This document shows, in pieces, positions 8,866-51,138 of a DNA stretch of 64,000 bases. Position 1 is the stretch's first letter. Every line of letters starts with the position of its first letter. This DNA comes from Dipteris shenzhenensis (taxonomy: Eukaryota): NCBI GenBank assembly GCA_047967505.1, contig CM106538.1; one strand, given 5' to 3'. A program made the position numbers and the translations under genes. The notes under the pieces were generated by a model. It was not told where the DNA came from, did no database searches, and worked only from the letters and a program-made list of their open reading frames with translations.

Positions 8866-11800
8866 TCACCTTCTTGCCATATGGCTCATGTAGACTTGTA
8901 TGGACCCATTGCTATGTTCCTTGATGACTTTGTATGGACGGGTCCACAATGGAAGGAACTTTTTATACATTTGGTGGTCCAATCTGTTATCAAAGCATAG
9001 CACAACATCCCCCTCAGCAAAGTGTCTTTCCCATCTCTTGCGAATCTTAGCATCCAAGTGGGCCTTTTGTTGGTTCTTTTGGATCTCTGTTTGATGTAGT
9101 GCAAGGTGTCGGGTTTCATCTAACTTCTCAAGTTGTACCAACCTGGCCTCTACATGTTCATCTTCTGTCATCCTCTATTCTCGTGCCAACAATCTCAAGG
9201 CCGGAATCTCTATCTCTAGTGGTAAAACTACCTCAGTACCGTACACCAACTCAAAAGGAGTGTGGCATGTAAACATTTTATGGGTGATGTTGTAAGCCCA
9301 CACGGCTTCAGTGACCTTTTGATCCCACTGGCTCCTATTCCTTGTGGCCATTTTCCCATGGATTTACAAAGGAGGCCGTTGGTCCGCTCCGTTTGTCCCA
9401 TGGATGCTGGATAATAGATGCTAGAAGTGCGATGATCAATACCCATGCAATCCATGAGCAACTCCACTGCTTCATTTAAGAATGGACTCCCATGGTCAGA
9501 TACTATTTCCATGGGTGTCCCAAACCTTGTGCAGATACGTTCAAATATGAAATTTGAAACTGCCTTACCATTTGCAGTGGGGAGGGCAATAGCTTCAGCC
9601 CACTTAGTGACATACTGAGTGGCTACCAAAAGATGCTTCTTTTTGCGGGTAGTCATGGGCAGGGGCCCAACAAAATCTATTCCCCACTTCTGAAATGGAT
9701 GGATGGACATCACTGGATGATTTTGCCCAGGACACAAATCCTTCCTACCAAAGAATTGACATGATTCATAAGTTTTGCAATACATAGTGACATCCTTGAA
9801 CAAGGTCGGCCAATAGTACCTAGCTGTATAGTCACTGGCATAATGGCCTCCACAAAATCCATCATGATAACGCTTCAATACCTTAGGTACTTCATCTGCA
9901 TCAATGGCCCATCTTAGTACCTCATCCATGCCTTGACAGTACAACACCCCATCAAAGAGAGTGTAGCACCTACTATCTCTACGGATCCTCTTTCTCTCAT
10001 AGCTAGTACTTTCTAGAGGAAAGGAGAAAGCGGTTAGAAATCTGTAGATACCACCATACCATGATCCCCAACTTCTATGGCTACTACAAGGGTTACATCG
10101 AGGCACTCCTCTAAATTCTTCTTAGCTGTATAGTCACTGGCATAATGTCCTCCACAAAATCCATCATGATAAAATTTCAATACCTTAGGTAATTCATCTG
10201 CATCAATGGCCCATCTTAGTACCTCATCCATGCCTTGACAGTACAACACCCCATCAAAGAGAGTGTAGTGCCTACTATCTCTACGGATCCTCTTTCTCTC
10301 ATAGCTAGTACTTTCTAGAGGAAAGGAGAAAGCGGTTAGAAATCTGTAGATACCACCATACCAGGATCCCCAACTTCTATGGCTACTACAAGGGTTACAT
10401 TGAGGCACTCCTCTAAATCAATCAAAGCATTCTTCAAGTTGGAACAACCCCCTTTTACAATTTTGAAAGAAAAATCATATTTTTATAAAACTGCCAATCG
10501 TTTGGCCAACCGGCCCATGGGATTTGGTGATTGAAGAACCTGTTTTGCAAGACCATTGCTAGAGATTATAATGAAGGACTTTCCAGCCACATAATGCTTA
10601 AATTTCTCAATGCAGAACACCAAAGACAAGGCATGCTTGTTAACCTCAGAGTAGCGTCATTCAGTTTCAAGCAATTGTCGAGAAGCAAATCGGACGGGAT
10701 ACATGAACTGATCCTCCCCTTGCTGGAGAAGAATACCCACCAAAGTGTGCTCACCAAACCCAGGATTAATATAGAAAGTCTTTGACCAATCAGGATTGCA
10801 TGGAATGGGTTCTGAAGCTAGAGCACTCTTGATTTGTACAAACCCATGATCACAATCCTCATCCCAAGAGAAATCAACCCCATCTTTTAATAACGTAGTC
10901 ATGGGTCACGTCAAAGTAGCATATTGATCAATGAAGCGGCGATAGTATCCTGCTAGATTGACAAAGGAGCATACCTGACGTTTCATTGTTGGTGGGGAGA
11001 GCTTGAGGATAGCTTCTACCTTCTTGGGGTCAGGCTTGACGCCCTTGAATGAGACAATATGTCCCAGTAACCTCCCTTGAGTGGTTTCAATGGTGCATTT
11101 TTCAGGGTTGAGGCTACCATTTGCATCATTGACCCTTTGGAAGGCCAACCTAACCTTCATGACGTGCTCCTTCCATGCTGAGAATATATAGAAATCATCT
11201 AAAAACACGTCCAAGAAAACCCCCAAATAAGGAGCAAACACCATCTGCATAAATCTTTGAAAGGTAGCATGAACATTGGTGAGGCCAAATGGCATTACTT
11301 TGAATGCAAACATCCCCCAGGCTGTGGCAAATGTGGTTTTAAGCACATCCTCCTCGGCAATTCTAATTTGATAAAACTTGAAGTTACCATCACAGAAAGT
11401 ATACATCTCATGACCACTTATCTTCTCAAGAATGAGGTCTTGAAAGGGTAGAGGATGATGGTTCCTCTTGGTGGCCGCATTGAGTTTCTTATAATTGATG
11501 CAGACTCGCCACTTGTTGTTTTTCTTTGGGGTGACTACCACTGGTGAAACCCATTCAGTATTGTGAACTGGGATAATAAACCCAACTTCTACAAGCTTCC
11601 GTAACTCTGAGTGCAAAGCGTCACTCTGTAGGGTCCCTAACCTCCGATATTTTGGAGCCACTAGCTTAGCATCAAGCTTCAGCTCTATCTTGTGTTTTAT
11701 GGCAGTCACATGGCGAAGGTGGTGGTAGCTAGTTGCGAAGAGGTTAGGGAAAACTTTGAACATTTCTAGGAACTCGTCTTCCTTGCTTGGAGTGAGGTTT

Positions 11801-12500
11801 GGGGAGAGCATAGATTCAAGCTGTTGAGGACTATCTGTTACCTTTTTCACAGGTGGTGGGGTTGGAGACACCCCCATCATGTAAACTTCTTCCTCCGAGA
11901 ACTCCTCCCCCCCATCCGAATCTTCCATTGATTCAGACACCGAGGATGAGAGAGTATCACTATCCTGCTCCTCTTCTTCTTTTGGTTCAGTGGCACCTCG
12001 TTGCATTGGGATCTTCTCCTTTGAAGCACCAAAAGACATGTGTCCTATCTTCCAATAGCTGACTGCATCACTCTTTCTCAACCACGGTCTCCTGAGTATG
12101 GCTGGGTAACTCTTGCTTGTATCTTCAATGTCCACTACATAGAAATTGATGGTGGTGGTCAACCCATTGACAGTGATGGGTAAATCCTCAATGACTCCTA
12201 GGGTGGCGAGTCGTCAATCATCTGCTACCTTGATTCAAGTGGAGGAGCGCCTTGTGCATTTCAAATTCAACTTCTTCATGATACAAGGCACCATGATATT
12301 ACATGCAACTCCCCCATCAACACACACACTTCTGACACAGCAATTATCTATGATGACGTCTACTATATGCGGGTGCCGATTTACTTCTTCAGAGATAGAA
12401 GAAATCTCTCATACCTTTCCCTTTTTCTTGTTCCTTTTTGTTGAGAGCCCTTGCTGCAGCTCACGTCTCACCTTAGGGCTTAATGCTATTAGTTGAGGAA
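8866..12500 (-). pseudogene. Element C pol (PR-RT-RH-INT, no aRH), fragmented
   Basis: 10906-12162 RT (WVSPVVVTPKK, MPFGLTN, FLDDF), 10657-10902 RH (FYINPG..VGILLQ), 9228-10106 INT (WGIDFVGPLP, SDHG), 8866-9171 INT C-terminus. Confidence 0.92.
9821..10419. repeat. 302-bp tandem duplication in the integrase N-terminal region of C
   Basis: ORFs 9228-10106 and 10034-10408 begin with near-identical ~95-aa sequences offset by 302 nt. Confidence 0.93.
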
Positions 12501-12531
12501 GCGTGATGCTCAAAGACCAATGAGCAAGGTC

Positions 12532-13712
12532 CTAAATGACCGAATAGTCTTCTTGCCCTAAGTTGATAGGAAAATCTAAAGGCGACCACTTACTCCTACG
12601 AGATCTTTTAGTCTTCTCTCTTGGTGGGCCTGCCATCTTAGCATTTGAGGGCTCTAAGGACACCTTCTTCCTAGGGTAGTGGCGGTCCTGGAGAGGGGTC
12701 CGAGGTGGCACGACTTCTCTTCCCGAGGTCAAGGACCTCTACGTTAGAATTCTCGGTGCCTGATCCACCTAGAAGATTCACCTTTGGAATATTGGGACAT
12801 TCGGTGTGATAATGACCCTTCTGGTGGCACTCATAGCACACGACATTGGCACGTTCTCTTTGAGGGCAATTGGCTTGATTTTTGATGCCTACCACCTCAA
12901 GCCAAATATCATTTAGGACCTTGGCTAGGTCATTGACTCTGAGTTCTTTAGCAAGAGGGGCCAAGGGAGTAGGAAGGAGGAGGGCTTGTCGGCGAGGCTG
13001 GGGAAATCTTCCAGGTGGAGGGTGAGGATATACACCTTGTTGAGGGTAAGCATCTAAGGGAGGACCATACATTTCAAGTGGAGGCAGTGGGTACATCCCT
13101 GATGGGGGGTACGGGTATGCCCCTAAGTTGGACTCCCCAAGTTGTTGTTGCAAAAAATTGAGGGGGTTGCGAAGGGACAACCGTCTTCTTTGAAGCGGGG
13201 TCAGACTGAACTTTATGAAACTTTTGAGCAATCTCATGTGCTAGCGCCATGGTTTCTGGATTTTCCCATTTAAGCTTGAGGCAGAATTTGTCACTTGCTC
13301 CTACTACAAGGAATCCCAGCACATGCTAAGTCATTCTAGCTCAAAATCCAGTGTTGTCCTCCTGCATGGTAATTAAATGGTCCAGGAGCGCGGCCGCTCG
13401 ATCCACATATCAATGTGCCATCTCACCTTCTGACTACTTCAAGTTTGCCACCTGCAGGTACACATTCTCCGGCTCCTCTTCTTTGCTAAAATACTCGATC
13501 ATAGCTGCTATCAACCTCGGCCAACTTTGGCAAACATCTTCGGCCTGCTTCTCATACCACACTTGAGCCATACCCTCTAGAAATGTGGGAAGAACCAACA
13601 ACCATCTATCTTCAGTAAGAAAGTTGAGAGAAACACAACAGCGCTTGAAGGCCACAAGATACTCACTTGGATTTTCTTCAATCCGACCACAGAACATTGG
13701 AATGTCAGCCAT
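12532..13712 (-). pseudogene. Element C gag (retrotransposon gag plus CCHC knuckle)
   Basis: MADIPMFCG..LPTFLEGMAQVWYE..W..LIAAM; knuckle CYECHQKGHYHTEC; homologous to element E gag. Confidence 0.88.
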
Positions 13713-13953: not shown

Positions 13954-14118
13954 TTACAGGCGAGGGTTAGAAACACGGCATTGCATGAGGTTGTTCATCA
14001 AGGCAAACAAGAATGCCATGACAAATGTCAACAGTTGGAGAGCTTGCACATCACCTTCAACTTCTTCCCGTTCTTGTGGTCGCCATACTATTTCTTCAAG
14101 GGGTGTGCGATTTGGCAT
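13954..14118 (-). CDS. Accessory ORF-B of element C (54 aa, unknown function, hydrophobic C-terminal half)
   Basis: Hand-translated MPNRTPLEEIVWRPQEREEVEGDVQALQLLTFVMAFLFALMNNLMQCRVSNPRL*; aligns without gaps to 23459-23599. Confidence 0.75.
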   Translation of the reverse strand: MPNRTPLEEIVWRPQEREEVEGDVQALQLLTFVMAFLFALMNNLMQCRVSNPRL

Positions 14119-14251
14119 CCTTCTTTTGAGTAATGTCCTTAAGGACCTTTTTGATGTTGTTCCAAAGTTGGTAAACTCGTATCAAAGATGCACAACACTG
14201 AGTTTCATGATGACCACAACCTTTGCATTCTTTACAAATGATCACCCTCAT
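14096..14251 (-). CDS. Small CCHC zinc-knuckle ORF in the leader of C (51 aa)
   Basis: MRVIICKECKGCGHHETQC.. has C-x2-C-x4-H-x4-C spacing and overlaps the flanking ORFs. Confidence 0.45.
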   Translation of the reverse strand: MRVIICKECKGCGHHETQCCASLIRVYQLWNNIKKVLKDITQKKDAKSHTP

Positions 14252-14696
14252 TCGTGGCTTGCGGCTTTGTTGGGAAAGTTCTTCCACTCATTTTATGCGT
14301 GATTGAAGTACAAGCTTCATGTGCCAAGAAATAAGCAACTAAATTTTGAGCTTGAGGTATATGCTAAATTTTTACCTCTTCAAATTGTTTGCAAAGTTCC
14401 AATGCTTGTTGATGTTGTGGAACCAAGCCTTCGCTCTGCACCTTCCACCTTCTGCTAACTTGTTCACACACGAGTTGATAATATCCTTGCATCTCAAGTT
14501 TCTTGATGTGATGTTCTTGCACCTTTTGTAGCCTAAAAATGAGTGTCGAGTACTCAGCTTGGTCACAAGTACTTGCAGGTGCAGACTTGCTATAACAATA
14601 CACCTCACCCCCCAGTGAAGTGAGCTTCACACCTACACTAGCAGCCTTAGTCGAAGGTTTGTATGCTCCATCAAATTGAAGGATCCAAGATGTCAT
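14232..14696 (-). pseudogene. Free-standing archaeal-type RNase H (aRH) ORF upstream of gag, with a premature TAG at 14364-14366
   Basis: WILQFDGA..AEYSTLI..LEMQG.YQLVCEQV..WKV..L..F..V.I*HIPQAQN.VA.FLAHEA; aligns with the aRH in element E pol. Confidence 0.88.
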
Positions 14697-14920
14697 TACA
14701 CCAAGACTAAAATCCGGGCATCCCAGGTTTCTCAGTAGTCCAAGATAGGTAGAAGGAGGGGGTGGGGAGAATTCAATACTTGAGCAAGATGTTCCATGCC
14801 AAATAAACTTACAATCCTTTGTTGATAGTTTATCTTTCGACCAAAAAGAATTACAACTTGAAGCTCAAAATGTGGCACAAAGGGTTGATTAGGTACAAAG
14901 GGACTCCTTGGTCGAAACAT
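14696..14920 (-). pseudogene. Accessory ORF-A of element C (74 codons, one internal TGA)
   Basis: MFRPRSPFVPNQPF..VILFGRKINYQQRIVSLFG..PLLLPILDY*ETWDARILVLV*; homologous to 30758-30982. Confidence 0.8.
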
Positions 14921-15360
14921 TACCAACCATAGCCAAGCCCTAGAAACTGTTGTAGTCAGGTCGAGAAGAAATTGTTTAAGATGAGCTTATCCACAGGAAT
15001 TAATAAGCAGATGCACCAAATCTCCCCCCAAGCTTGTGGATCATCCCACCCTTGGAAGAATGTCACCCTTTTAATGACCTCTGATGCAGCAAGTAGCTCG
15101 ATCACCGCACAATGAGTAGAACTAGAATCAAAGCCCTCTGAGTGTATCAATAGGTCTTCACCTTGAATTATCCATGGTGTATCATCCCACCCGTCGTCTC
15201 CTCAAGCAATGCATTGTACAATTAGTTGTTGAAGATCAACATGAAGATGAAGGAAGAGATCTCGCCAATTGGTAGTTGTAATGAGCAGAGGACCAAGCGC
15301 CAAATCCTTGAACCTGTCGAGAAGTGACATAAATATCCACCCTCCTTGTGTGGCGTGCAT
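14920..15360 (-). pseudogene. Accessory ORF-0 of element C (~146 codons, two internal TGA)
   Basis: In-frame extension of ORF 14956-15150 from ATG 15360 to TAA 14922-14920, which overlaps the ORF-A ATG. Confidence 0.5.
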
Positions 15361-15659
15361 ACTTAAAAAAATTTCAAAATCTACAATCTAGTACGAGATA
15401 TGGATGGAGCACATGAAGTGTACTTTTTCTTTTTATAGCAAGATGAAACTCCCTACGGTTAGAGAGTTACAGTTCATGAGATTTCAAGATATAAGCAATA
15501 TCATTACACTTTAATCACTTCCTATTTGCTGGCCCATTGGTAAGTCTTCCTTTTGTGAATGGGGAGATCTTGGCTTCAATTCCCACTCCTTAATAAAAAG
15601 GAGAGGAGAGGAGAAGAGAAAGAGAAGAAGAAGAGGATAGAGGGGCGTGAGGTCTATTG

Positions 15660-15960
15660 CAGATGCACAGGAACAGTTTTGTAAACTCACAGGTTGGATG
15701 CGCAAGGACAGTTTTGACGCGCGGACGACCAGAAGACGTGATGCACAAGAACAGTTTTGCAAACGCATAGATTGGATGCGCAAGAACAGTTTTAATGCGT
15801 GGATGACCAAAAGATGCACAGTGCGCACGTAAGACAATGGGGATACACGTGTGACCAGTAGACGTGCAAATGCATGCACAGGAACCTAGAAGATGAGCAG
15901 GAACCGTGAGCAAAAGGCATGCAGGTTGGAGACGCAAAAATAGAGAAGTTTTGCAACCGC
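15660..15960. repeat. Degenerate tandem repeats (GATGC(A/G)CA..AACAGTTTT units) in the 5' LTR/leader of C
   Basis: Recurring gatgcacaggaacagtttt / gatgcgcaagaacagtttt with ~35-40 bp subunits and a ~77-bp period. Confidence 0.7.
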
Positions 15961-17109
15961 AGAGATGGAGAACCGCAAGCAGAAGACACGTAGATTAGAG
16001 GCACAGAATTAGAGAACCAAACACAAAAGATGCCGCAGAATCGCACATAGTCGTAGGAGTAACAGATGTCAACGGACGGATTGTATGCCACTAGTCATGG
16101 AGACTTCGTATCCCAGCAGCCACACCAATTCTATTAACTAGAAAAATAAATCAAGGCATGAGGCTTGACGCTAGGCATGGCGACGCCCGAGAGCCATAGA
16201 AGAAAAGGAAACGTGAGGGGAGAAGCATTAACATGGGTGGGGAAAAGGGATTAAGAGGGGTGGAAATGAAGAGGAGGACTATGGCACAAGGGGGAAAGGA
16301 GAGGGGGAAGAGAAGCATGTACATGATGGGAGGTGGAATGTAGAGATGGAGACATCAAGGAAAGAGAGTCATGCTTTATTTGAAAGGAAGGATGGGGAAA
16401 TCAAAGTACTAAATAGCTAGGTGGCTTTACAAGAATGAGCGTGTCCCATCAAGGAATAGCCCCCTCCTTTTATAGCCAAAAGAGGGGGTCTCTCCCAATA
16501 AATGCATCCTTCCACATGCATGGTGTGTGTGGAGGAATCTCGCATGTGGGCTAGGTGGATACGCACCCTCAATTGTATGCGACAACCCTTTGCCTCATTT
16601 TCCCACATAAATCAAACCCCATATCCCAAGTCTAAGATACTCCCTTGGTCTCTCCCCAATTTTATAATACGTTCAAACATCTAGGAGGACAAGTGGAGGA
16701 CTATCCTACTTTCCCCATTATTTAACTTGCACTCTTGGACTATCGACACCCCCCCCACATGGGCCTATCCTACATGGAGGGAATAATCCAATATAATATC
16801 CATCTCCAGCTATTTTATATTACTTCTCCCATGGTCCTTGGGCCATGTCTCACTAAATGCAGGCATGGGACCGCCTAGGTGGAGGGGTGGCACATGGAGG
16901 AACCATGCCACCTTAACATTTTATAATACTACTACCATGGATTATGTACAACACCTCTTATGGGTCCTCTTACGTGGAAGGGTGGTACATGGTCATGCCC
17001 TACCACCTCAACCCTAGGCCCTATGTACACCATATTGTATTATACTATTGCCACACATACAAGCACACACACATATTTATGCCTTTTACCTTGGTCAAAT
17101 TTATCCATA

Positions 17110-17113
<4 letters not shown>

Positions 17114-18162: not shown

Positions 18163-18175
18163 TGGTATCAGAGCC
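18163..18175 (+). promoter_or_regulatory. PBS (tRNA-iMet) of element D
   Basis: TGGTATCAGAGCC directly after the LTR end CAACA. Confidence 0.92.
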
Positions 18176-19016: not shown

Positions 19017-19418
19017 ATGGCTTGCTTATGCCAAATATGTGAAAAGCCAAAACATAAAGCAATGTCTTGTTATGCTACAAAGGATGAAAATGCCAACCTG
19101 ACTTCCTTATTGAAGATTGCCAAAACAATGGTTGCCAAAAAGGAAGCAACTACAGAGATCTACCCTCCCATAGCACTTTTATTTGACTCCAAGTACAAGA
19201 AAAAGATGAAGGTCAGACACCTAAGATATGCTTCTCTACACAACTATGGAGATGACAAGATAATTGTTCTCTTGAAGGATATGACTTTCAAATCCACTTG
19301 TTCTATCATAGTACCATCTTATAAGGCACTAGACACTGCCCATGTGGTAAGACCTTGCCTTGACATGGATATTTTGCCTCCACAAGATGAGGCATCCCAT
19401 GAAGATTATGCATTTTAA
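19017..19418 (+). CDS. 133-aa ORF with N-terminal CCHC zinc knuckle inside element D
   Basis: Intact ATG..TAA; CQICEKPKHKAMSC matches C-x2-C-x4-H-x4-C. Confidence 0.6.
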   Translation: MACLCQICEKPKHKAMSCYATKDENANLTSLLKIAKTMVAKKEATTEIYPPIALLFDSKYKKKMKVRHLRYASLHNYGDDKIIVLLKDMTFKSTCSIIVPSYKALDTAHVVRPCLDMDILPPQDEASHEDYAF

Positions 19419-20970: not shown

Positions 20971-22383
20971 ACTTATAGTATCAATCCATATTAGACTAAA
21001 CTAGATCTACATTGGTCAAACAAAGGTCTAAGACAATCGCCCAATAGTGAATCAGTAGGAAGGGACTCACCTGATACCATAAAAGGGATCCCATTTCCCT
21101 CATTGCAATGTTAGCATATAGTAGGTCTTTTAGCCAACATCAGATTGCAAGACTCCCCATAGCCCAAGGAGCACTTATTAGCCTTTAATAATGATAGGAG
21201 TGGGAGAAAAGGAGCAAAATACCTCTCTCCACCTTACCTTCCCACCTCACCATCATAGGAAGGGATAGTGTGATGCCAAAAATTGATATTTTTAATTTGG
21301 CATTGGTATTGTTTTTCTCTATGTTTGATAAGAGTTTGAGTATCAAGTGATAGCCTAGCGGCTCTCACTTATTTCTATTTTCTATGATATTGTATGGGAT
21401 GGAGAGGATGAGTGGAATGGCTCATTGTAAATACCATAGGTATGAATTATAAATACCTTGGTATGGGGTGAGAGTTATTTGTGTATGGGATTTTATGGAG
21501 TTTTTTAGAAAATAGGAAGAGTGAGTCATATAAAGAGGTGGGCTCATGTCCATGTGTTCCAATAATATAAGAGAGGCCACATGCCAAGCGTGTGGAAGGC
21601 ATGTGGAGGAGTGTGAAGTCAAGAGGAATCCTTCTAGAACTCCTATGTGGAATAAGGAGGATGTGGACATGTGGAAAAGAGAGGGTCCCTATGGACTCCA
21701 TGTGAGGAGACTCTTGACTTTCTCAATATTTTAGGAGTCTTGAGCATCTTGTGATGGGACACATGGCAAGAGTAGCCAAAAAGGACATGGATGGTGACAT
21801 ACGTGCTTATGTGATTGATGGGGAAAGGAATCTACAGGTAGCAATTGTAAATGGGTGAAGGAGGGTAACAAAATCTCTATAAAAGGAACCCTCCTCTCCC
21901 TTGTTCATCAATCTCTTCCACCATTAGGCCTTATGTTGCTATAGCTCTAGTCTCCCCAAGCCTCTTCCATGAGCCTTCTCTCCCTCTTGTAGATATTCTC
22001 TTATGTAGACTCTTGAGTCCATCTCTCTCTAGTTTATTCTCTCTCTATGAGTAGTCTTGGAGCTTCCGCTCCCTCTTGTATGTATGAAACCTCTTCTTCT
22101 CCCTTGTGTTTGTAATGTTGGAGTGGATTCTCACTCTATTTGTAATGAAGGTCACTTCAGGTTCTCTCTCTCTTGAGTGTCTCTTCCCTTTTCTTTCTTT
22201 CAAAGCCTTAAAAGTTCTTTCTATTCGGCTGCTCACTGTGCACACATGGTCCATCTATTTCCTGAGCCACCATGCAAACTTCTTCCCCTCATCTAGGCGA
22301 AATCAATGAGGGGTGGATCGTTGATGAAGGTGGAGTCTTGAGGGAGCATCCTGCTCAGGCGAAATTAGCATGGATGGAGGGCA

Positions 22384-22920
22384 ATTTTCATGACAGTTTG
22401 ACCCCCTGTTAGTATTTTGCTCATAACTTTCTGCCGGTAGTCCGATTGTAATGAAATTTATATCAGCGCGAAGCTCTCTTTAAGGGCATGTTTGTATGTG
22501 GTCAGATCTTGAATCAAATACTGCTGCAATAAGTTATGATTCTCTGTGTGTGACAGTCTGTTTTTATGACAGTTTTTTCCCCCGTCTAGTAAACTGTCCA
22601 TAACTTTTTGGCCGCTTCTCTGTTTCTTACGAAACATATATCAGCACGAAGCTCTCTTTAAGGCGCATGTCTCTAATGCTTATATCTTGAATCAGATACT
22701 ACTGCAAAATGTTATGAGTCTCTGTGTCTGACAGTCTGTTTTCATGATAGTTTTTACCCCCTTTGAGTAAACTATCCATATCTCTTCAACCGTCTGTCTG
22801 TTTTCAATGAAACTTATATCAGCGCGAAGCCCATCTCAAGGCGCATCTCTTTGTTGATTGAATCTTTGATATCATGTCTCTACTGAAAGTTATAGGTCTT
22901 TGTGTCTAATGACAGTTTGT
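22384..22920. repeat. Three ~178-bp tandem repeats inside the LTR of E (also ~30175-30710)
   Basis: TATCAGC anchor at 22461, 22639 and 22817. Confidence 0.85.
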
Positions 22921-22965
22921 AGAGTGTTTTGAGCTAAGTATAAAGGTGTCTATGAAGGAGGTGCA

Positions 22966-23190
22966 ATATTTCCTCGGAATCTACCCATCCGACCCAATCA
23001 GCCCCTTCAAACTCCTAGATATATATCAATTCATGTCATGTTGAGCTGCAAGATCTTCTTTCAACAACGTATCGCTCTTCTCTTTGGCGCAGACCAGCTC
23101 GTTGAGATTATGGCCTCTGCTGATCCTTTCCTTCTCCCTATGCTTGATTACAACATCACTTGGGATGTTACCATCTTCATTCTCATCTGA
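22966..23190 (+). pseudogene. ORF-A copy in the 5' LTR of E (start codon ATA, otherwise open)
   Basis: IFPRNLPIRPNQP..QQRIALLFG..PFLLPMLDYNITWDVTIFILI*. Confidence 0.7.
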
Positions 23191-23340
23191 GGGAGGAAAG
23201 TATGGTATGGTATCTTGGCATAAAAGCTTCTTTCTAATGTCCCATTCTCAATGATAAATATCTTTGGCAGTCAATTTGAAAGCAGTAGGAAGTGAAGAGG
23301 TGCGTGAAGTTTATTACCCCCAACTTCATGTCACATCTTT

Positions 23341-23357
23341 TGGTGGAGACGCCGGGT
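23341..23357 (+). promoter_or_regulatory. PBS of E, probably tRNA-Ala
   Basis: TGGTGGAGACGCCGGGT, 5 nt after the LTR, is complementary to a ..TCTCCACCA 3' end typical of eukaryotic tRNA-Ala. Confidence 0.7.
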
Positions 23358-23458: not shown

Positions 23459-23599
23459 ATGCTTGGAAGAACTCCGTTAGAAGAGATTGCAACCCGTTTA
23501 AGAGAACTTGAAGATTGTGAAGGTGATGCTCAAGCTATTCGCACAGTCACCATGATCATATCCTTTATGTTTGCACTGTTGAATATGTTGGTGAATTGA
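23459..23599 (+). CDS. Accessory ORF-B of element E (46 aa)
   Basis: MLGRTPLEEIATRLRELEDCEGDAQAIRTVTMIISFMFALLNMLVN*; homolog at 13954-14118 (-). Confidence 0.75.
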   Translation: MLGRTPLEEIATRLRELEDCEGDAQAIRTVTMIISFMFALLNMLVN

Positions 23600-23943
23600 C
23601 AACACCGGCAGCAGGCACAATGATAGATTGGGGATTGTTCCATGCACTGGTAGCTTGGTGTGAAGAAGAGTTGAGTCTTTGGGTAGTTTTCGACTATAAT
23701 AGTGGAGTGGTGATTCTTAATGCTTTCAACTTCTTTTGCTATGCAAATGATGAAGAGTACAATATCTTGAAGCTTTTATGTGTACTTCCTATTGTGAGAA
23801 GGGTGATTCTAGAATGCATGTATACACAATGTTTTCATGGTGCTGGTTGGTGGTCACTTACTTTTGAAGATTTTGTTGAGGATCACATTGTGGAGGGTTT
23901 TCAACAAGTGGTTATGCATAATAAGTTGGTCTTGGTATACTAA
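23596..23943 (+). CDS. Accessory ORF-C of element E (107-115 aa, unknown function)
   Basis: Open frame between ORF-B and gag (first ATG at 23620), protein-like composition, weak similarity to ORF-0 of C. Confidence 0.55.
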   Translation: MTTPAAGTMIDWGLFHALVAWCEEELSLWVVFDYNSGVVILNAFNFFCYANDEEYNILKLLCVLPIVRRVILECMYTQCFHGAGWWSLTFEDFVEDHIVEGFQQVVMHNKLVLVY

Positions 23944-24017: not shown

Positions 24018-25454
24018 ATGGTGAAGATTCCAGTGTTTCGAGGGACCCAAGGGGAAGACCCGGAGTCTTATCTTCAGGATTTTGTTCGAGGATGCCGGCT
24101 TTCTGGATGGTCCATGAAGGATCGGGCAGAGATTTTGCCTGATTTTCTTGAAGGTGTAGCCTTGAGTTGGCATGAGACCTTGCCGGACTCTACCAAGGAG
24201 GACTGGAACCAAGTGGTGGCAGCAATGAAGCAGAGATTTGGGGCAGTGGAGTCGCCAAATGCTTTGATGTTGCAGTTGGACCGGTTCTATCAAGGAGAGG
24301 GTGAGTTGGTCTCTGCGTTGGCAATCCGATATGAAACTTTTTGGACAAAGTATGAAAGGGCAGCTTTGCGAGCTGTGGCATCTACATCATCGGCCCCTCA
24401 AAGTCTCTCAGGGATGCAGCACTTAAAGATGAGCAAATTTGTTATGGCTTTGGAGCCTCGTCTTCGCTCAAAAGTAATGAGTAAAGATCCAACAACATAC
24501 GTGGAGGCACTTCGCATTGCGACCAAGAAAGAAGCTTCTCTAAAGATCGAATCCTCTTTTGTGTCTTCAACAGCTTCAAATTCTAAGGTGGAGGTAATGG
24601 GCACTCCTCAAGTACCAAAGTCCTCTGAGTTAGATCATAATATCTCCCAATTGATGGCAGAGTTTGCTGATTTGAAATTGCATTTGGTTAATGCACGACA
24701 ACCTAGAGCACCAAAGAGTGAAGATAGGCCTCGAGATAGGAGTGGGGTCACTTGCTATGAATGTAATGAAAAAGATCACTATCACCCCGAGTGTCCTAAA
24801 TTGAGAAAGAAAGAAGAAAAACAAGTATCCTTGTTAGAAGCTTCTTCAGGGGATGAGGAAAGAGAGGTAATGATGGCTAAACGGGGGCGTGGTAAAGCAA
24901 AAGAAGAAGAAGAAAGCAAGGAAGAAGTAGATGAGGAACATCAAGAAGAGGAACACCATAGTAAGAAAAAGAAGGCATCTAGAAGGAGAATTAGCCAGTC
25001 AGACTTTCCTTTAGGACAAGGAATTGGAAGCTATGACTTGTTGTCCGACCTTAAAGAAAAGGAAGCTCATATCACCTTTGGTCAATTACTTGCTTTGTCT
25101 CCAAAACTACGGAAGGAATGGGGAAAACTAGCAAGCACAAGAGTGTCAAAGAAGAAAAAGAAGAAAAGTGCCATTCCTATTGTTCAAAAGGTAGATATAG
25201 ATGTTGGTGATGATGTACCTGTGGTTGATGTGATCATTGATGGTCAAGTGATTTCTAATGTGTACATTGATGGAGGTGCATTGATTAATGTCATGAGTGA
25301 GAAGACCATGATAGATACTGATTTAAAATACTCTAGTACTACCTCTCCTTATCACATCAAATTGGCTAACAACACTAGGGTTAAGACCTTGGGAGTTGTG
25401 AAGAATCTAGAAGTGGATGTATGTGGAATTTCTATGCCGACTACTTTTCAGTGA
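24018..25454 (+). CDS. Element E gag-protease
   Basis: MVKIPVFRG..LPDFLEGVALSWHE; knuckle CYECNEKDHYHPEC; protease VYIDGGALINVM; frameshift near 25440. Confidence 0.92.
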   Translation: MVKIPVFRGTQGEDPESYLQDFVRGCRLSGWSMKDRAEILPDFLEGVALSWHETLPDSTKEDWNQVVAAMKQRFGAVESPNALMLQLDRFYQGEGELVSALAIRYETFWTKYERAALRAVASTSSAPQSLSGMQHLKMSKFVMALEPRLRSKVMSKDPTTYVEALRIATKKEASLKIESSFVSSTASNSKVEVMGTPQVPKSSELDHNISQLMAEFADLKLHLVNARQPRAPKSEDRPRDRSGVTCYECNEKDHYHPECPKLRKKEEKQVSLLEASSGDEEREVMMAKRGRGKAKEEEESKEEVDEEHQEEEHHSKKKKASRRRISQSDFPLGQGIGSYDLLSDLKEKEAHITFGQLLALSPKLRKEWGKLASTRVSKKKKKKSAIPIVQKVDIDVGDDVPVVDVIIDGQVISNVYIDGGALINVMSEKTMIDTDLKYSSTTSPYHIKLANNTRVKTLGVVKNLEVDVCGISMPTTFQ

Positions 25455-25899
25455 TCCCTACCAAGCCAGATGCACGTGCCTATCCATTGATTTTGGGAAG
25501 GCCTTGGCTACGCAAGGTGAAGGCTGTTCAAAAGTGGGATACTGGAGAATTGATTTGCAAGGAAATGATAAGAAGGTGCGCTACAACATCAGAAGCCGCA
25601 AAAAGGAAGTTGTCAAGGAGGAGTCTTCAACATCAAAGAGTTCAAGCTCTGACTTAACCAATGAAGAAGAAGAGACAGGGTGTAGCTTCGAGGAGTCCAA
25701 CTCAGAGGGTGAGGTGGAAGGAGTGGCCTTTGGTCTTTGTCTTGGTGCTGATCGGGATGAGTCAGGAAGGAACAAGGTGGTGGTGCAAGAAGATCCTATA
25801 GAGACACTTCATGTGGAGGATGTGGAGCACACTAAATGACGCCAATGCAATGAAGAGCTTCTTGGTGATTCTCTATCAGGTAGTGAGAAGCTCCAGTAC

Positions 25900-28800
25900 T
25901 TGGATATGCTAGATGATTTTCCATGTTTGTTTGCAACAAGCTATTCACAGGTTCGACCAGTCTCTCTTGTGGAGCACAAGATTGAGTTGAAGCCAGAAAG
26001 CAAGCCAGTTGTGCAACGCTTAAGGCGATTGGGGGTGATCCAAGCTGAGGCACTAAAGAAAGAGGTAACACAACCAGTTGAGGCGGGATTCATCTTTCCT
26101 GTTGATGATTCAGAATGGATATCTCCTGTAGTTGTCACACCAAAGAAAGGAAATAAGTGGCGAGTTTGTGTGGACTTTCGTCCTTTGAATGCATGCACTA
26201 AGAGGGATCATTTTCCTTTGCCATTCCAAGATGAAATACTAGACCAAGTAGTAGGGCATGAGATGTATTTTGTATGTGATGGGTATTCTGGGTACTTTCA
26301 AATTTGTATTCGGGAGGAAGATCAAAAGAAAACATCATTTGTCACACCTTGGGGAGTTTTTGCTTACAGAGTGATGCCTTTTGGGTTGACGAATGCACCA
26401 GCTACATTTCAAAGGTTCATGAGTCAAGTCCTGGAGCCTTACTTGGGAAAGTTCATAAGGGTGTTTTTGGATGATTTTTGCATTTATTCTCAGCACATAG
26501 ATCACATGGAGAAGTTAAAGATGGCCTTAGCTAGGATTGATGAAGCAAAAGGGTGTCTAAATCCTAGCAAGTGTCATTTGGCTCAAACAAAAGTAGTCTT
26601 GTTGGGGCATATTGTGTGTGAAGAAGGCCTGCAAATGGATCCTGACAAGGTTCAAGCAATCATGACATTGCCAAGTCCTGAGAGTGTCACTGGTGTTCGC
26701 AGAATTCTAGGAAAGAGCAAGTATTATCAACACTTTTGTGATGATTTCACAGAGATAGTGCATCCCATGAACTTGTTGACAAGAAAAGGAGTTTCTTTCC
26801 AATGGGGTGTGGAGCAACAAGAATCTTTCCAGCAACTTAAGGAGGCCATGAGTAAGGGCCCAATATTGAAGCCCCCTAATTGGTCTCAAGATTTTTATGT
26901 AAATCCAAGTGTATCTTTGCATTCAGTTGGTGCTGTATTGCTACAAAAAGGAGAGGTAGGTAGAATGCAACCCATCTATTATGCCAGCCAACAGCTTACA
27001 AATGTGGAAACAAGGTATGAAGAAATGGAGCAGCAAACTCTCTCTTTGGTGTTTTCCATCAGAAACTTTCGCTCCTATTTATTACCTCGACCATTTTTCT
27101 TCCTTACCTCTCAGTTTGTATTAGCATATCTAGTTCGCAAGCCTAATCCTGGGGGGAGATTTGCAAAATGGTTGTCAGAGCTTCAAGAGTTCTCTTTCTC
27201 TTTTGTCACGAAAAATACCACTAGGTCCACTATGGCAGATTTGTTCACAGGACGGGAGGATCTAGGAGAAGAAAAGAAATGTAAGGAGAACATTAAAGAT
27301 GAAAGGGATACACCACCAACAACTTTTGTTTTGTATTTTGATGGGGCTTTTAGTCCTTCATGCCAACAAGGAGCCGGGGGGATAGTCTTGATGAATCCTG
27401 AAGGTCAAGAGGTATGGGCAAGAGGACAAGAGCTTCCAGGTATCACTACTAACAATGCAGCTGAGTATAATGCTTTGATTCTTGGTTTGGAGGGTTGTGT
27501 TCAAAGTCAAGTTAAAGAATTGGAAGTAAGAGGAGATTCTCAGCTTATTATAAAGCAAATGCAAGGGCATTACAAGACAAGAAGTCCTCATTTGAAGGAG
27601 CTTAATCAAAAGGCTATGGCACTATGTAGTCAGTTTGATTTTTGCAAGTTTGTTCATATAAACAGAAAAGAAAATCAAAGGGCAGATGAGTTAGCTACTC
27701 AAGCCATTGTAGTACAAGACCGGGGGGTGGTTTCTTTGGTAGACACTGGATGGCCAGAACTACAAGATGTTCAGCAATATGTGGAAGAAGGCATGTTTCC
27801 TCGAGGGTTAACTCCACAACAGAAGCAGAGATTGGTAAGGAAGGCTTGTCCCTATACTATTATTGATGACATTCTTTATAAATTGGGAAAAGATAAGGTG
27901 CTCTGTCGAGTGGTCCATCCCATGGAGACTAGGAGAATCCTAGAAATGTGTCATGAATGCTCTGGTCATTTTACTTCAGCAAGCACAGCTATGAGAATTC
28001 TTAATGCAGGCTACTTTTGGCCACACCTCCATAAGGATGTATATGAATGGTGTCGAAGTTGTAAAGTATGCCAAAAGTTTGGAAGGCGACATTTGATTCC
28101 TGGGCCCTTGAAGCCTATTCTAGCATATGGACCATTTGAGAGGTGGGGGTTGGACTTTGTGGGACCACTCCCTCGCTCATCTCAAGGCAAGCATTATTTA
28201 TTGGTGGCCACAGATTATGCGACTCGATGGGCAGAGGCCAAGGCCACAGTCAATAGCAAGGCAAGCACAGTTGCAAAATTTCTCTTTGATCAAATTTATT
28301 CACGCTTTGGTTGTCCTTTGGAAATTCTCACTGATGGAGGAACCTCTTTTAGAAATGAACTAATTGAACATGTGGTGCATAAGCTAAAGATAAATCATAG
28401 CATGTCCATGCCATACTATCCCCAATGTAATGGCTTGGTTGAGAAAACAAATGGATTGTTGTGCAATTCAATGGGAAAGCTTGTTGACACTAAGAAAAGG
28501 CATTGGGATAGGCACTTGGCAGAAGTTTTATGGGCTTACAGAACCACACACAAGCTAGCTATTGGGTTTACAGCATTCCAACTAGTGTATGGAATAGAAG
28601 CCATTTTACCCATTGAATTGGAGATACATAGTCTTCGCACAGCTGTTGCAAGAATAAAAGGGCAAGAGGATGCCTATGCTCAACACTTGGTACAGCTAGA
28701 AGCCTTGGATGAATGCAGATTACAGGCCTTACAAAACTTGAAATCTTCTCAAAAAAGGCGCAAGGCCCATTTTGACACCAAATTATGCAAGAAGAAAGAT

Positions 28801-29007
28801 ATTGCAGAAGGAGATTTGGTAATGAGATTTGATAGCCGTCTGGACAAGCGGCTAGACAAAAAGTTTATCGGTCGATGGGAGGGACCATATCGAGTCAAAA
28901 AGAAGTTCACGAATGGAACCTATAAGCTTGAGGAGGTTGATGGCATGGTGATACCCGGACGCACCAATGAGTATCGCCTTAAATTCTTCTATGCTCGACT
29001 ACCTTGA
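25900..29007 (+). CDS. Element E pol: RT - degenerate RH - aRH - integrase
   Basis: RT (MPFGLTNAPATFQR, FLDDF), RH (FYVNPS..VGAVLLQ), aRH (LYFDGA..TNNAAEY..GDSQLIIKQ..HINRKENQRADELA), INT (WGLDFVGP, TDGG, NGLVEKTN). Confidence 0.95.
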   Translation: MDMLDDFPCLFATSYSQVRPVSLVEHKIELKPESKPVVQRLRRLGVIQAEALKKEVTQPVEAGFIFPVDDSEWISPVVVTPKKGNKWRVCVDFRPLNACTKRDHFPLPFQDEILDQVVGHEMYFVCDGYSGYFQICIREEDQKKTSFVTPWGVFAYRVMPFGLTNAPATFQRFMSQVLEPYLGKFIRVFLDDFCIYSQHIDHMEKLKMALARIDEAKGCLNPSKCHLAQTKVVLLGHIVCEEGLQMDPDKVQAIMTLPSPESVTGVRRILGKSKYYQHFCDDFTEIVHPMNLLTRKGVSFQWGVEQQESFQQLKEAMSKGPILKPPNWSQDFYVNPSVSLHSVGAVLLQKGEVGRMQPIYYASQQLTNVETRYEEMEQQTLSLVFSIRNFRSYLLPRPFFFLTSQFVLAYLVRKPNPGGRFAKWLSELQEFSFSFVTKNTTRSTMADLFTGREDLGEEKKCKENIKDERDTPPTTFVLYFDGAFSPSCQQGAGGIVLMNPEGQEVWARGQELPGITTNNAAEYNALILGLEGCVQSQVKELEVRGDSQLIIKQMQGHYKTRSPHLKELNQKAMALCSQFDFCKFVHINRKENQRADELATQAIVVQDRGVVSLVDTGWPELQDVQQYVEEGMFPRGLTPQQKQRLVRKACPYTIIDDILYKLGKDKVLCRVVHPMETRRILEMCHECSGHFTSASTAMRILNAGYFWPHLHKDVYEWCRSCKVCQKFGRRHLIPGPLKPILAYGPFERWGLDFVGPLPRSSQGKHYLLVATDYATRWAEAKATVNSKASTVAKFLFDQIYSRFGCPLEILTDGGTSFRNELIEHVVHKLKINHSMSMPYYPQCNGLVEKTNGLLCNSMGKLVDTKKRHWDRHLAEVLWAYRTTHKLAIGFTAFQLVYGIEAILPIELEIHSLRTAVARIKGQEDAYAQHLVQLEALDECRLQALQNLKSSQKRRKAHFDTKLCKKKDIAEGDLVMRFDSRLDKRLDKKFIGRWEGPYRVKKKFTNGTYKLEEVDGMVIPGRTNEYRLKFFYARLP

Positions 29008-29058: not shown

Positions 29059-31127
29059 TGTGATGCCAAAAATTGATATTTTTAATTTGGCATTGGTATT
29101 GTTTTTCTCTATGTTTGATAAGAGTTTGAGTATCAAGTGATAGCCTAGCGGCTCTCACTTATTTCTATTTTCTATGATATTGTATGGGATGGAGAGGATG
29201 AGTGGAATGGCTCATTGTAAATACCATAGGTATGAATTATAAATACCTTGGTATGGGGTGAGAGTTATTTGTGTATGGGATTTTATGGAGTTTTTTAGAA
29301 AATAGGAAGAGTGAGTCATATAAAGAGGTGGGCTCATGTCCATGTGTTCCAATAATATAAGAGAGGCCACATGCCAAGCATGTGGAAGGCATGTGGAGGA
29401 GTGTGAAGTCAAGAGGAATCCTTCTAGAACTCCTATGTGGAATAAGGAGGATGTGGACATGTGGAAAAGAGAGGGTCCCTATGGGCTCCATGTGAGGAGA
29501 CTCTTGACTTTCTCAATATTTTAGGAGTCTTGAGCATCTTGTGATGGGACACATGGCAAGAGTAGCCAAAAAGGACATGGATGGTGACATACGTGCTTAT
29601 GTGATTGATGGGGAAAGGAATCTACAGGCAGCAATTGTAAATGGTAAAGGAGGGTGACAAAATCTCTATAAAAGGAGCCCTCCTCTCCCTTGTTCATCAA
29701 TCTCTTCCACCATTAGGCCTCATGTTGCTATAGCTCTAGTCTCCCCAAGCCTCTTCCATGAGCCTTCTCTCCCTCTTGTAGATATTCTCTTATGTAGACT
29801 CTTGAGTCCATCTCTCTCTAGTTTATTCTCTCTCTATGAGTAGTCTTGGGGCTTCTGCTCCCTCTTGTATGTATGAAACCTCTTCTTCTCCCTTGTGTTT
29901 GTAGTGTTGGAGTGGATTCTCACTCTATTTGTAATGAAGGTCACTTCAGGTTCTCTCTCTCTTGAGTGTCTCTTCCCTTTTCTTTCTTTCAAAGCCTTAA
30001 AAGTTCTTTCTATTCGGCTGCTCACTGTGCACACATGGTCCATCTATTTCCTGAGCCACCATGCAAACTTCTTTCCCTCTTCTAGGCGAAATCTATGAGG
30101 GGTGGATCGTTGATGAAGGTGGAGTCTTGAGGGAGCATCCTGCTCAGGCGAAATTAGAATGGGTGGAGGGCAGTTTTCATGACAGTTTGACCCCCTGTTA
30201 GTATTTTGCTCATAACTTTCTGCTCGGTAGTCCGATTGTAATGAAATTTATATCAGCTCAAAGCTCTCTTTAAGGGCATGTTTGTATGTGATCAGATCTT
30301 GAATCAAATACTGCTGCAAAAAGTTATGATTCTCTGTATTTGACAGTCTGTTTTCATGATAGTTTTTACCCCCGTCTAGTAAACTGTCCATAACTTTTTG
30401 GCCGCTTCTCTGTTTCTTACGAAAAATATATCAACACGAAGCTCTCTTTAAGGGGCATGTCTTTAGGTACTTATATCTTGAATCAGATACTGCTGCAAAA
30501 TGTTATGAGTCTCTGTGTCTGACAGTCTGTTTTCATGATAGTTTTTACCCCCTTCTAGTAAACTGTCCATATCTCTTCAACCGTTTGTCTGTTTTCAATG
30601 AAACCTATATCAGCGCGAAGCCCATCTCAAGGCGCATCTCTTTGTGTGATTGAATCTCTGATATCATGTCTCTACTGAAAGTTATAGTCCTCAGTGTCTA
30701 ATGATAGTTTGTAGAGTGTTTTGAGCTAAGTATAAAGGTGTCTATGAAGGAGGTGCAATGTTTCCTCGGAATCTACCCATCCGACCCAATCAGCCCCTTC
30801 AAACTCCTCGATATATATCAGTTCATGTCATTTTGAGCTGCAAGATCTTCTTTCAACAACGTATCACTCTTCTCTTTGGCACAGACCGGCTCATTGAGAT
30901 TATGGCCTCTGCTGATCCTTTCCTTCTCCCTATGCTTGATTACAACATCACTTGGGATGTTACCATCTTCATTCTCATCTAAGGGAGGAAAGTATGGTAT
31001 GGTATCTTGGCATAAAAGCTTCTTTCTAATGTCCCATTCTCAATGATAAATATCTTTGGCAGTCAGTTCGAAAGCACTAGGAAGTGAAGAGGTGCGTGAA
31101 GTTTATTACCCCCAACTTCATGTCACA
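29059..31127 (+). repeat. 3' LTR of E
   Basis: Follows the PPT GGGGGGGGAAAG; direct repeat of 21269-23335. Confidence 0.96.
30758..30982 (+). CDS. Intact accessory ORF-A (74 aa) in the 3' LTR of E
   Basis: MFPRNLPIRPNQP..VILSCKIFFQQRITLLFG..PFLLPMLDYNITWDVTIFILI*; homolog in C at 14696-14920. Confidence 0.75.
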   Translation: MFPRNLPIRPNQPLQTPRYISVHVILSCKIFFQQRITLLFGTDRLIEIMASADPFLLPMLDYNITWDVTIFILI

Positions 31128-47944: not shown

Positions 47945-49244
47945 TCAGGGTTGCTGTAGCCAGTGATGAAATGGGCTTCACGGGATTGCTCTTATATAGC
48001 CACCAATCATAGTCGGTTAGGCTTAATTGGGTGGCCGACCCAGTCTGCCCAAAACAGTCGACTGGGGGTCGGTCCCAAAATAGGCCACCGACCATACGAT
48101 AGAACCGGTGCACAAAACAGAGCAACTAACCTATGGTCTCCGTTCAGCCCACAACCATCCGGGATCATCTGAGGCTCCAAACGGACCTCGCAACCTGAGA
48201 GTGGGCTACCCCGGGAAATGCTCCGTCTACCCCCAGTGCAGTCAATCAAGGGATGCCTTCCCGCACTTGCATGTAGCCTAGTTGGCGGTGTGCCAACTCT
48301 ATCTGAAGCCGTCCAGCCATCAAGCCACACATGGCCCCCATCTGGTGTCCAAACCAGGACCTACCGAATAACCGAGCTACTCAAACACCTTCTCCTCATA
48401 TGGGGGGGCTTACAAGTAGAGTTAGCTAGTTCCCGCGTAGTTACACGAGTGAAGCATTGATATCTAACAATAGTATCCTATTAGATGATATGACCAATAT
48501 TGGTGTGTCACCATCGGAATCCCTTTTACCCCTTTATTGTAAGCTTTGTGTATTGACTTGTCCTTGCCTTTTCCATCATGTAAGAAATAGTGGGTAAGTA
48601 GTACAGTGAGTTAATGGGGTCTACATGAAACATGGAACCATACTTGGTGAAAGCCCATGTCATGACTAGATTCATGGCATCCCTTCAAAAGCTCTCAAGG
48701 TTGAATATGCTCATATTCCAAGTCACATGTTAATTCAAGATTCAAAGAACGAAGGATTCGGAGAGGCAAGTATTTCACCCAATTTATTAGCACCAATGAG
48801 AAGGACAATAAGTTGTGATAAGAATATCTTTTTGCTCAACAATACATGAACTAAGACATAGTGAGAGGACTGAAGAGTTGGAGTTCTTTCACAATTACAA
48901 AACTAGCACATGTTTATACATGCATGAATTTGAGCCTCTACCTTTGTTAGAAAATGTGAGAGCATTGAATTGTCAAGAGTACATGACTTCAATGGAAAAA
49001 TGAGCACGAAGCATCAACCTTCATATGGGATTTTGTGATGCAAATTAGGGTGGAGGTTAAGAGGCAAAGTCGACATTTGGTTTTAAATTCTTTCTCAATC
49101 AACATTGCATACCAAGGTTAAGCAAGAATTGCTTTGTCGATGATACTGCTTTATCAATACGTGCTTGTGAAACAATATGGCTCTGAAGGCTTCTAGGTAA
49201 AAACTGCTCTGTCCAATTGCTAGATCTTCTATGATAACTTGAGT

Positions 49245-51128: not shown

Positions 51129-51138
51129 GTGCGGTTCC

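Follow-up and report, generated by a model that had tools for sequence, protein, structure and literature searches.

Two candidate small genes flank a stand-alone archaeal-type RNase H upstream of gag in a Tat-lineage Ty3/gypsy retrotransposon of Dipteris shenzhenensis

Why does a retrotransposon carry five short open reading frames (ORFs) in series ahead of gag? The question is raised by positions 13,954 to 15,360 of a 64,000-nucleotide (nt) stretch of Dipteris shenzhenensis DNA (GenBank assembly GCA_047967505.1, contig CM106538.1; hereafter the window), which is a nest of plant-type retrotransposons. An initial annotation, made from the letters alone, had described ORF-0, ORF-A, an archaeal-type RNase H (aRH), a CCHC ORF and ORF-B in one Ty3/gypsy element, here called C, and ORF-A, ORF-B and ORF-C in a second, diverged element, E, and had taken them for one selected set of accessory genes. 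All eight frames were recovered at the positions first given, those of C on the minus strand (Table 1), and the region proved to be the 5′ leader of C plus the last 150 nt of its long terminal repeat (LTR). We consider it likely that this leader holds two real small genes, ORF-A and ORF-B, which flank an aRH of a published, 'pre-capsid' kind and are both common to E. The aRH arrangement is already known, and ORF-A and ORF-B appear to be new, that is, apparently undescribed small accessory genes of early-plant Tat elements. Selection on the set has good support for these two, from substitution pattern and from their families of relatives, and none for ORF-0 and ORF-C, which are unconserved.

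As first proposed, the ORF-A and ORF-B proteins of C and E align clearly: without gaps, at 40% identity over 75 amino acids (aa; 70 bits) for ORF-A and at 49% over 47 aa (59 bits) for ORF-B, with the other frames of the same DNA giving at most 30 bits in either case. The DNA is 61% identical over 118 nt in the ORF-A block and 63% over 134 nt in the ORF-B block, so that the initial statement that the surrounding DNA lacks identity applies to the flanks, which do not align, and not to the blocks. Differences at first, second and third codon positions number 35, 22 and 48 in the 75 codons of ORF-A (chi-square p 1.2e-4) and 18, 14 and 27 in the 47 codons of ORF-B (p 0.021), with a pooled p of 3e-6. 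The proportions of nonsynonymous and synonymous differences in ORF-A (pN 0.38, pS 0.73) correspond to a ratio of nonsynonymous to synonymous rates (dN/dS) of ~0.21, the ratio for ORF-B is ~0.12, and the off-frames of the two blocks give 0.93-1.33; a caution against our reading is that these ratios are approximate, synonymous sites being saturated and both frame and region having been picked by aligning. In this pair of copies, then, neither ratio lies near 1, the value that the initial annotation had named as refuting its proposal. By these measures the comparison of C with E shows that ORF-A and ORF-B evolved as coding sequence. Protein identity between the two elements is 35-43% in gag and 41-48% in pol, so the level of conservation in ORF-A and ORF-B is roughly that of gag.

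Conserved blocks in an LTR end and a leader lie in the usual place of cis-acting signals (R/U5, packaging, dimerization), and they might alternatively be upstream ORFs whose translation matters rather than their peptide. The shunt leaders of plant pararetroviruses, described as combining many short ORFs with a stable stem (PMC5902531), offer a parallel, as the E leader has more than 30 ATGs. Against such an explanation, which we hold to be quite unlikely, stand the third-position excess and a dN/dS of 0.1-0.2 in one frame only, the confident fold predicted for ORF-A from a 38-sequence alignment, and relatives that keep start, stop and length down to 32% identity. Moreover, the E leader RNA (695 nt) is no more stable than its shuffles (z +0.9, 20 shuffles).

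These relatives were found with a HMMER profile built from four window copies of ORF-A and searched against 1.84 billion representative proteins, which gave 42 proteins at E<=1e-3, 14 of them at E<=1e-10. Most are 63-118 aa long, and their identity to the E copy ranges from 32% to 59%. A larger profile was re-matched by 41 of them, with the same end position in 30 and the same start methionine in 22, and ORF-A of C scores 79.7 bits against the family profile. The relatives that were looked up (10, with 9 further cluster members) are unnamed proteins encoded on 0.5-10 kb contigs of ENA or Logan assemblies; some recur on several contigs, in one case on 8. The protein P0002 is close to ORF-A of C and intact, and in P0004, also a copy of the C family, the ORF-A frame continues into aRH. 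Together, the profile matches show ORF-A to be a member of a large, diverse, unnamed family of predicted small proteins with conserved start and stop. A word-based protein search had returned no ORF-A relatives among proteins of similar length and, since HMMER later found them, was evidently too insensitive; scans of JGI metagenomes with the ORF-A alignment and with an alignment of the gag N-terminus gave no confirmed locus. Three relatives from the set P0001, P0003, P0022, P0026 and P0013 carry the ORF-A domain in tandem pairs, and P0026 joins a permease-like N-terminus to it, possibly from a chimeric contig. P0013, a 1012-aa ARM-repeat protein, was rejected as spurious, as its 8 weak repeats match the first ORF-A profile and not the larger one.

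For ORF-B, the start methionine in C aligns with an internal methionine of the E frame as initially called, and in contigs of three sequencing runs the E-family frame continues 8 codons past the stop seen in the window, giving 54 codons, the same length as in C. The stop of this full-length form overlaps the ATG of ORF-C as ATGA. A word-based profile search yielded 14 ORF-B relatives, all close to the C copy: 10 are exactly 54 aa long, one has lost its stop, one is truncated, one has 55 aa, and in one (P0063) the tail of the CCHC ORF is fused in frame to ORF-B. The word-based search found nothing for E ORF-B among longer proteins, and ESM Atlas gave no usable ORF-B match.

Fused forms such as P0063 and P0004 (ORF-A with aRH) would be expected if the small ORFs were the wreck of one larger upstream gene, running ORF-A-aRH-CCHC-ORF-B, whose vestigial ends E had kept after aRH moved into pol; the four units are adjacent or overlapping in C, which is also visibly decayed. 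We judge this history unlikely. The relatives of ORF-A share their end (30/41) and their start methionine (22/41), ORF-B is free-standing at 54 aa in 10 of its 14 relatives, and the junction in P0004 replaces the conserved hydrophobic end of the family and so looks like that of a frameshifted copy. In E, moreover, ORF-A and ORF-B are in different frames and are separated by the LTR end and the primer-binding site (PBS).

To what kind of products these two genes might give rise was addressed by structure prediction, as the initial annotation had suggested. ORF-A, of ~72-74 aa, is modelled as a Pro/Asn-rich N-terminus followed by a compact β-α-α-β-β domain, the AlphaFold2 model from a 38-row alignment (pLDDT 86.5, pTM 0.67) having a strand at residues 22-27, helices at 29-40 and 42-50, and strands at 55-60 and 68-73. 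None of the 38 aligned family sequences has a Pfam match above noise, the profile has 0 matches among PDB sequences, and the model found no fold match in the PDB by Foldseek (best E 0.3), by VIA (best Z 3.2) or in BFVD, a collection of predicted viral structures (best E 0.41). In ESM Atlas, the relative P0009 reached a best score of 0.79, below lead level. A KH-like reading of the β-α-α-β-β order was dropped, the KH domain being absent from the fold-search lists. The N-terminal half of ORF-B is acidic; a hydrophobic stretch of 17-19 residues (Kyte-Doolittle hydropathy 1.8-2.1, low hydrophobic moment) and a short basic, Arg-bearing tail follow, and AlphaFold2 models the peptide as a single helix over residues 6-50 (pLDDT 77). 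By composition and by model, ORF-B resembles a tail-anchored peptide with a transmembrane-like segment. The predicted complex of ORF-A with ORF-B scored 0.00, which gives no verdict on binding. Thus structure prediction delivered a confident ORF-A fold and an ORF-B helix, with no known fold matching the former.

Table 1. Features of elements C and E and of the third ORF-A copy (F); positions in the window, with the ORF limits of the initial annotation where they were given
Feature	Position	Strand	Initially annotated ORF	Remarks
ORF-A of C	14696..14920	-	14920-14732	74 codons; in-frame stop 14734-14732
ORF-A of E, 5′ LTR copy	22966..23190	+	23038-23190	145 nt before LTR end; conserved start reads ATA
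ORF-A of E, 3′ LTR copy	30758..30982	+		74 aa, open; ATG at aligned position of C's ATG
ORF-A, third copy (F)	48702..48902	-		frameshift and stops; profile 41.8 bits
ORF-B of C	13954..14118	-	14118-13954	54 aa
ORF-B of E, conserved core	23459..23599	+	23420-23599	starts at Met common with C; initial ORF begins 13 codons earlier, 23420
Stand-alone aRH of C	14313..14696	-	14696-14364	archaeal-type RNase H
CCHC zinc-knuckle ORF	14096..14251	-	14251-14096	51 aa; 23-nt overlap with ORF-B start, other frame
ORF-0	15202..15360	-	15360-15202	52 aa; last 150 nt of C LTR, running into PBS
ORF-C	23620..23943	+	23620-23943	107 aa; E only
Element C 5′ LTR	15210..17112	-		~1.9 kb; starts AGTTATGG at 17112, ends ...ATGCA at 15210
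Element C PBS-like site	15190..15205	-		13/16 positions match PBS of E
gag (and protease) of C	12142..13712	-		in pieces
pol of C (RT-RH then INT), without aRH between	8893..11763	-		in pieces
Element E 5′ LTR	21269..23335	+		TG...CA, 2067 nt
Element E 3′ LTR	29059-31127	+		97% identical to 5′ LTR over 2078 aligned nt
PBS of E, 16 nt	23341..23356	+		5 nt past LTR end
gag-PR and pol (RT-RH-aRH-INT) of E	24018..29007	+		gag starts 24018
RT, reverse transcriptase; RH, RNase H; INT, integrase; PR, protease.

Element C is a decayed Ty3/gypsy retrotransposon of the Tat lineage and belongs to the published 'pre-capsid' type. Its LTR start is 93% identical over 57 nt to the DNA just past a polypurine tract at 8780, and 8780-8723 is all that remains of the 3′ LTR; the LTR end at 15210 was inferred from the PBS-like site 4 nt further on. 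That motif has 2 matches in the window, the C site and the PBS of E itself, against 0.16 expected by chance, and its spacing from the CA end equals that in E. The anatomy of C thus comprises the LTR start, the polypurine tract and the PBS-like site only. The mark of Tat elements, a second RNase H of archaeal type, is present in the pol of E and in the upstream ORF of C, which matches Pfam RVT_3 (E 7.9e-13) and is 35% identical to residues 472-600 of E pol. The C copy is decayed, with a stop at 14366-14364 beyond which homology goes on to 14313, and two of its catalytic Asp positions, compared with the aRH of E, read Tyr. No counterpart of E pol residues 434-621, which hold aRH, lies between RT-RH and INT of C, and a 300-nt tandem duplication (97% identical) occupies 9821-10418, exactly where E has aRH. 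Part of the serial five-ORF look of C is decay, in the form of in-frame stops and shifted frames. A 16-nt repeat on the minus strand (15036-15192) overlaps the 3′ end of the PBS-like site of C and recurs 141 nt downstream, where it is followed by a polypurine-like run, TTGGGGGGAGA; it may be a scar of the rearrangement that placed ORF-A after the PBS.

With aRH at 14693-14313, ahead of gag (13712), and none in pol, C has the layout known as structure #4, or pre-capsid, an assignment to be read with the duplication at the aRH point of pol and the broken state of aRH itself in mind. An aRH ORF upstream of gag was described as structure #4 in four mosses and one clubmoss (Biryukov & Ustyantsev 2023, PMC10508981), and 'pre-capsid' is the name given to the aRH-before-gag layout by Prokopeva et al. 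(2026, PMC13468544). C likewise has a stand-alone aRH before gag and none in pol, and E likewise shares the RT-RH-aRH-INT order of Tat structure #1. The text consulted in these two papers, supplements left out, mentions no small ORFs flanking aRH, no knuckle after aRH and no ORF in the LTR, and the words 'zinc', 'knuckle' and 'CCHC' occur 0 times each in PMC10508981. Nor did literature searches on small or LTR-borne ORFs of plant LTR retrotransposons, without subscription journals and supplements, turn up a description of these genes. The initial annotation had recognized none of the products and had proposed a comparison with described accessory ORFs: the aRH matches the published stand-alone type (PMC10508981, PMC13468544), and ORF-A and ORF-B find no match there nor in any Pfam family.

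Element E is a Tat element of the retrovirus-like layout, structure #1, its pol giving Pfam matches in the order RVT_1, RT_RNaseH, RVT_3/RNase_H (residues 474-601) and rve. Its LTR anatomy is complete, with an LTR pair, a PBS, a G-rich polypurine tract ahead of the 3′ LTR and a 4-nt flanking duplication, ATAG; contigs of two sequencing runs part from the window sequence precisely after 23335, confirming this LTR end for other copies. The copy in the window is mildly decayed: ORF-B stops early, the start of ORF-A is lost in the 5′ LTR, and between PR and RT the reading frame is broken near 25450 and again near 25553 and meets an in-frame stop at 25837-25839. Because contigs of three or four other runs read on at these places, the family seems, as far as these contigs represent it, to have gag, protease and pol joined in a single open frame. 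None of the listed runs is recorded as RNA; contigs of two that were guessed to be RNA run collinear to the DNA from the LTR end through ORF-B and ORF-C and are uninformative on transcription. The initially suggested likeness to a complex retrovirus found no support as regards spliced accessory genes, the sole joint reported being a 129-nt skip inside gag with no canonical intron ends. A ~178-nt tandem repeat in 3 copies (22385-22907) lies inside the LTR just upstream of ORF-A, and no tRNA gene, as a possible primer source, was found in the window. Runs X2, X3 and X6, which contain E-family sequence (80-99% alike among the X2 contigs), are labelled 'algae metagenome'; 40 algal genomes surveyed in 2023 are reported to contain neither Tat nor aRH elements (PMC10508981), and land-plant DNA in the samples would explain the E-family sequence there.

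The position of ORF-A differs between the two elements. In C it begins ~270 nt after the PBS-like site, its homology continues after the internal stop for 12 codons to the stop common with E, and this final stop overlaps the aRH start as TAATG. In E it precedes the PBS, lying within the LTR, so that the element holds two copies of it. The claim of one cassette common to both elements accordingly failed, as ORF-A is in the LTR ahead of the PBS in E and, in C, is past the PBS-like site and abuts aRH. The third copy, F, is 66% identical in DNA to E over 176 nt and is cut 233 nt downstream by a Copia LTR. TATA-like motifs near ORF-A (22939 in E, 48922 in F, 15436 in C) do not keep a conserved distance to the ORF, and no transcription start was drawn from them.

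The different placement in C and E would also suit fragments of host genes or of another repeat, acquired independently and without a role in the element, as would the lack of any family, structure or annotation link to retroelement biology and the fusion of P0026 to permease-like sequence. Such an origin is, in our judgement, highly unlikely: ORF-A and ORF-B precede gag in an unchanged order and orientation in both elements, which share only 48% identity in pol, their divergence equals that of gag and pol, as co-inheritance would predict, ORF-A is also found in a third LTR-like fragment (F), and some relatives occur, repeat-like, on several contigs (one on 8).

What of the remaining frames? 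The CCHC ORF contains a perfect CX2CX4HX4C knuckle and has no counterpart in the E leader, being seen in the C family only. ORF-0 has no Pfam match, no match to the ORF-A or ORF-B profiles and no counterpart in E, and ORF-C likewise has no Pfam or profile match and no counterpart in C. ORF-0 was tried as a diverged ORF-A and rejected, as the two do not align, and membership of either ORF-0 or ORF-C in the ORF-A/ORF-B families was dropped for want of a profile match. Variants of ORF-C in the run contigs (0, 4 and 5 by codon position, one in-frame and one frame-breaking deletion) decide nothing. Both ORFs are most likely chance ORFs. At E<=1, Pfam finds no PMD, Transposase_28 or Athila ORF-1 domain in ORF-0, ORF-A, the CCHC ORF, ORF-B or ORF-C.

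How might ORF-A and ORF-B be expressed? We infer that both would be translated from the 5′ part of the element RNA, with ribosomes that load at the 5′ end reaching ORF-A first. In C-type elements the TAATG overlap could then promote termination-reinitiation onto aRH, which would explain how a stand-alone aRH is made, and in the E family the ATGA overlap of ORF-B and ORF-C would pass ribosomes on in the same manner; these stop-start overlaps are known here as sequence motifs alone. E-type ORF-A, at the 3′ end of the LTR, could in addition be expressed from any LTR. Once made, ORF-B would insert into a membrane as a tail-anchored peptide, and ORF-A might, at low confidence, act as a soluble partner or as a regulator of particles or their assembly. 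Stop-start coupling is known from SART1 and influenza B. Reinitiation coupled by UAAUG is documented in the hypovirus CHV1 (PMC2699510), and the coupling has been reviewed (PMC10275272); the TAATG motif at ORF-A/aRH in C corresponds to the CHV1 type and the ATGA at ORF-B/ORF-C in E to the AUGA type.

Considering the pairing of a predicted soluble with a predicted membrane-anchored product, the nearest functional parallel, by analogy, is the sORF1/sORF2 pair of the Drosophila MDG1 group (412, Stalker2), reported to encode proteins of ~110 and ~70 aa upstream of gag with low dN/dS, sORF2 being a small membrane protein with a reported link to transmission between cells (bioRxiv 10.1101/2025.03.14.642691). 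As in the account given there, two small sense ORFs precede gag here (~72 and 54 aa) with low dN/dS, ORF-B likewise has a putative single hydrophobic, membrane-like segment, and the polyadenylation site described between the MDG1 sORFs finds an echo in the LTR end between ORF-A and ORF-B of E. The likeness is one of description, between different host kingdoms and different Ty3/gypsy lineages. The hydrophobic segment is central in sORF2 and near the C-terminus in ORF-B, and the myristoylation motif MGxxxS/T described for sORF2 is not in ORF-B, whose first residues are MPN.. in C and 10 of the 14 relatives but MLG.. in E. As to a FAST-like polybasic patch (>=3 Lys/Arg <=15 residues after the transmembrane segment) and a cytoplasmic tail, the tail of ORF-B is only 8-9 residues long, with 3 Arg in some relatives (P0055, P0056) and 2 in the C copy of the window. 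It is conceivable, although we think it improbable, that ORF-A and ORF-B would be the plant counterpart of this pair, a soluble plus membrane-anchored module that attaches the particles of the element to membranes or, in place of an envelope gene, carries them from cell to cell, and that E-type ORF-A moved into the LTR, so that each LTR, solo ones too, would be a small gene (promoter, ORF, poly(A) signal) acting in trans for the family.

Genes within LTRs have precedents in sag of mouse mammary tumour virus, which lies in U3, and nef of human immunodeficiency virus, which overlaps U3, both expressed from spliced or LTR-internal transcripts. ORF-A of E is likewise a coding frame within the LTR and occurs twice in the provirus; the precedents concern U3 of vertebrate retroviruses, whereas ORF-A of E is placed by LTR position and not by transcription start. 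Closer by descent are the extra ORFs of Ogre, Retand and Athila, described as large, in sense orientation upstream of gag and carrying PMD, Transposase_28 or Athila ORF-1 domains (PMC6317226; Ustyantsev et al. 2015, PMC4408406). ORF-A and ORF-B share with them the superclade and the sense position upstream of gag, and differ in having 54-75 aa and no Pfam match where those are large and domain-bearing. The REXdb survey, as described by its authors, counted extra ORFs of at least 250 codons only (Neumann et al. 2019, PMC6317226), so ORF-A and ORF-B would have been invisible to it.

Several observations weigh against taking ORF-A and ORF-B for genes of these elements. The coding case comes from comparison of sequences, not from RNA or peptides. 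The ORF-A relatives are gene calls on short metagenome contigs, a source that favours open frames and biases the intact share upward, and they are tied to Tat elements by this window and P0004 alone. All 14 ORF-B relatives are near kin of C, leaving its deep conservation to E alone. Start codons are uneven, the E 5′ copy of ORF-A reading ATA and F having no Met in the homologous stretch, and in some E-family contigs ORF-A lacks 8 nt, ORF-C lacks 1 nt, or ORF-B as initially called has 1-2-nt indels, the last upstream of the conserved Met. More than 30 ATGs between 22965 and the gag ATG leave the route to gag in E unexplained, the opposite sides of the PBS on which ORF-A lies in C and E do not fit a single fixed expression mechanism, and structure and family searches of ORF-A and ORF-B give no functional hint.

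Should the two genes be real, their interest lies first in size, as genes of 54-75 codons were never looked for in surveys with a cut-off of at least 250 codons such as that described in PMC6317226, and in their conservation between Tat elements that have diverged to the degree seen in gag and pol. They are candidates for the question of how a stand-alone aRH before gag is expressed; how an aRH outside pol could work was posed as a question in PMC10508981. They are equally candidates for how plant elements that lack an envelope interact with membranes or spread between cells, and for whether LTRs can carry genes of their own. Profiles of ORF-A and ORF-B may also be used to annotate and subdivide early-plant Tat lineages.

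The rest of the window contains further elements. Nested Copia elements occupy 38917-48469. The outer one, on the minus strand (gag 42075-41575, integrase 40652-40122), interrupts copy F of ORF-A, and its own 5′ LTR is divided by a younger Copia on the plus strand (42357-47945), which has 355-nt LTRs of 99% identity. At 17874-20083, two 289-nt direct repeats, 100% identical, surround ~1.6 kb that includes a 133-aa ORF (19017-19418), its product starting MACLCQICEKPKHKAMSC; the whole may be an LTR element of small size and very recent origin. A 190-nt tandem repeat in 3 copies, assigned to no element, lies at 51135-51706. The block 54000-62000, rich in G+C (55-63% vs ~42% elsewhere), is a retroelement of another kind, in which a series of long ORFs runs on the plus strand and RVT_1 is matched at 58457-60076.

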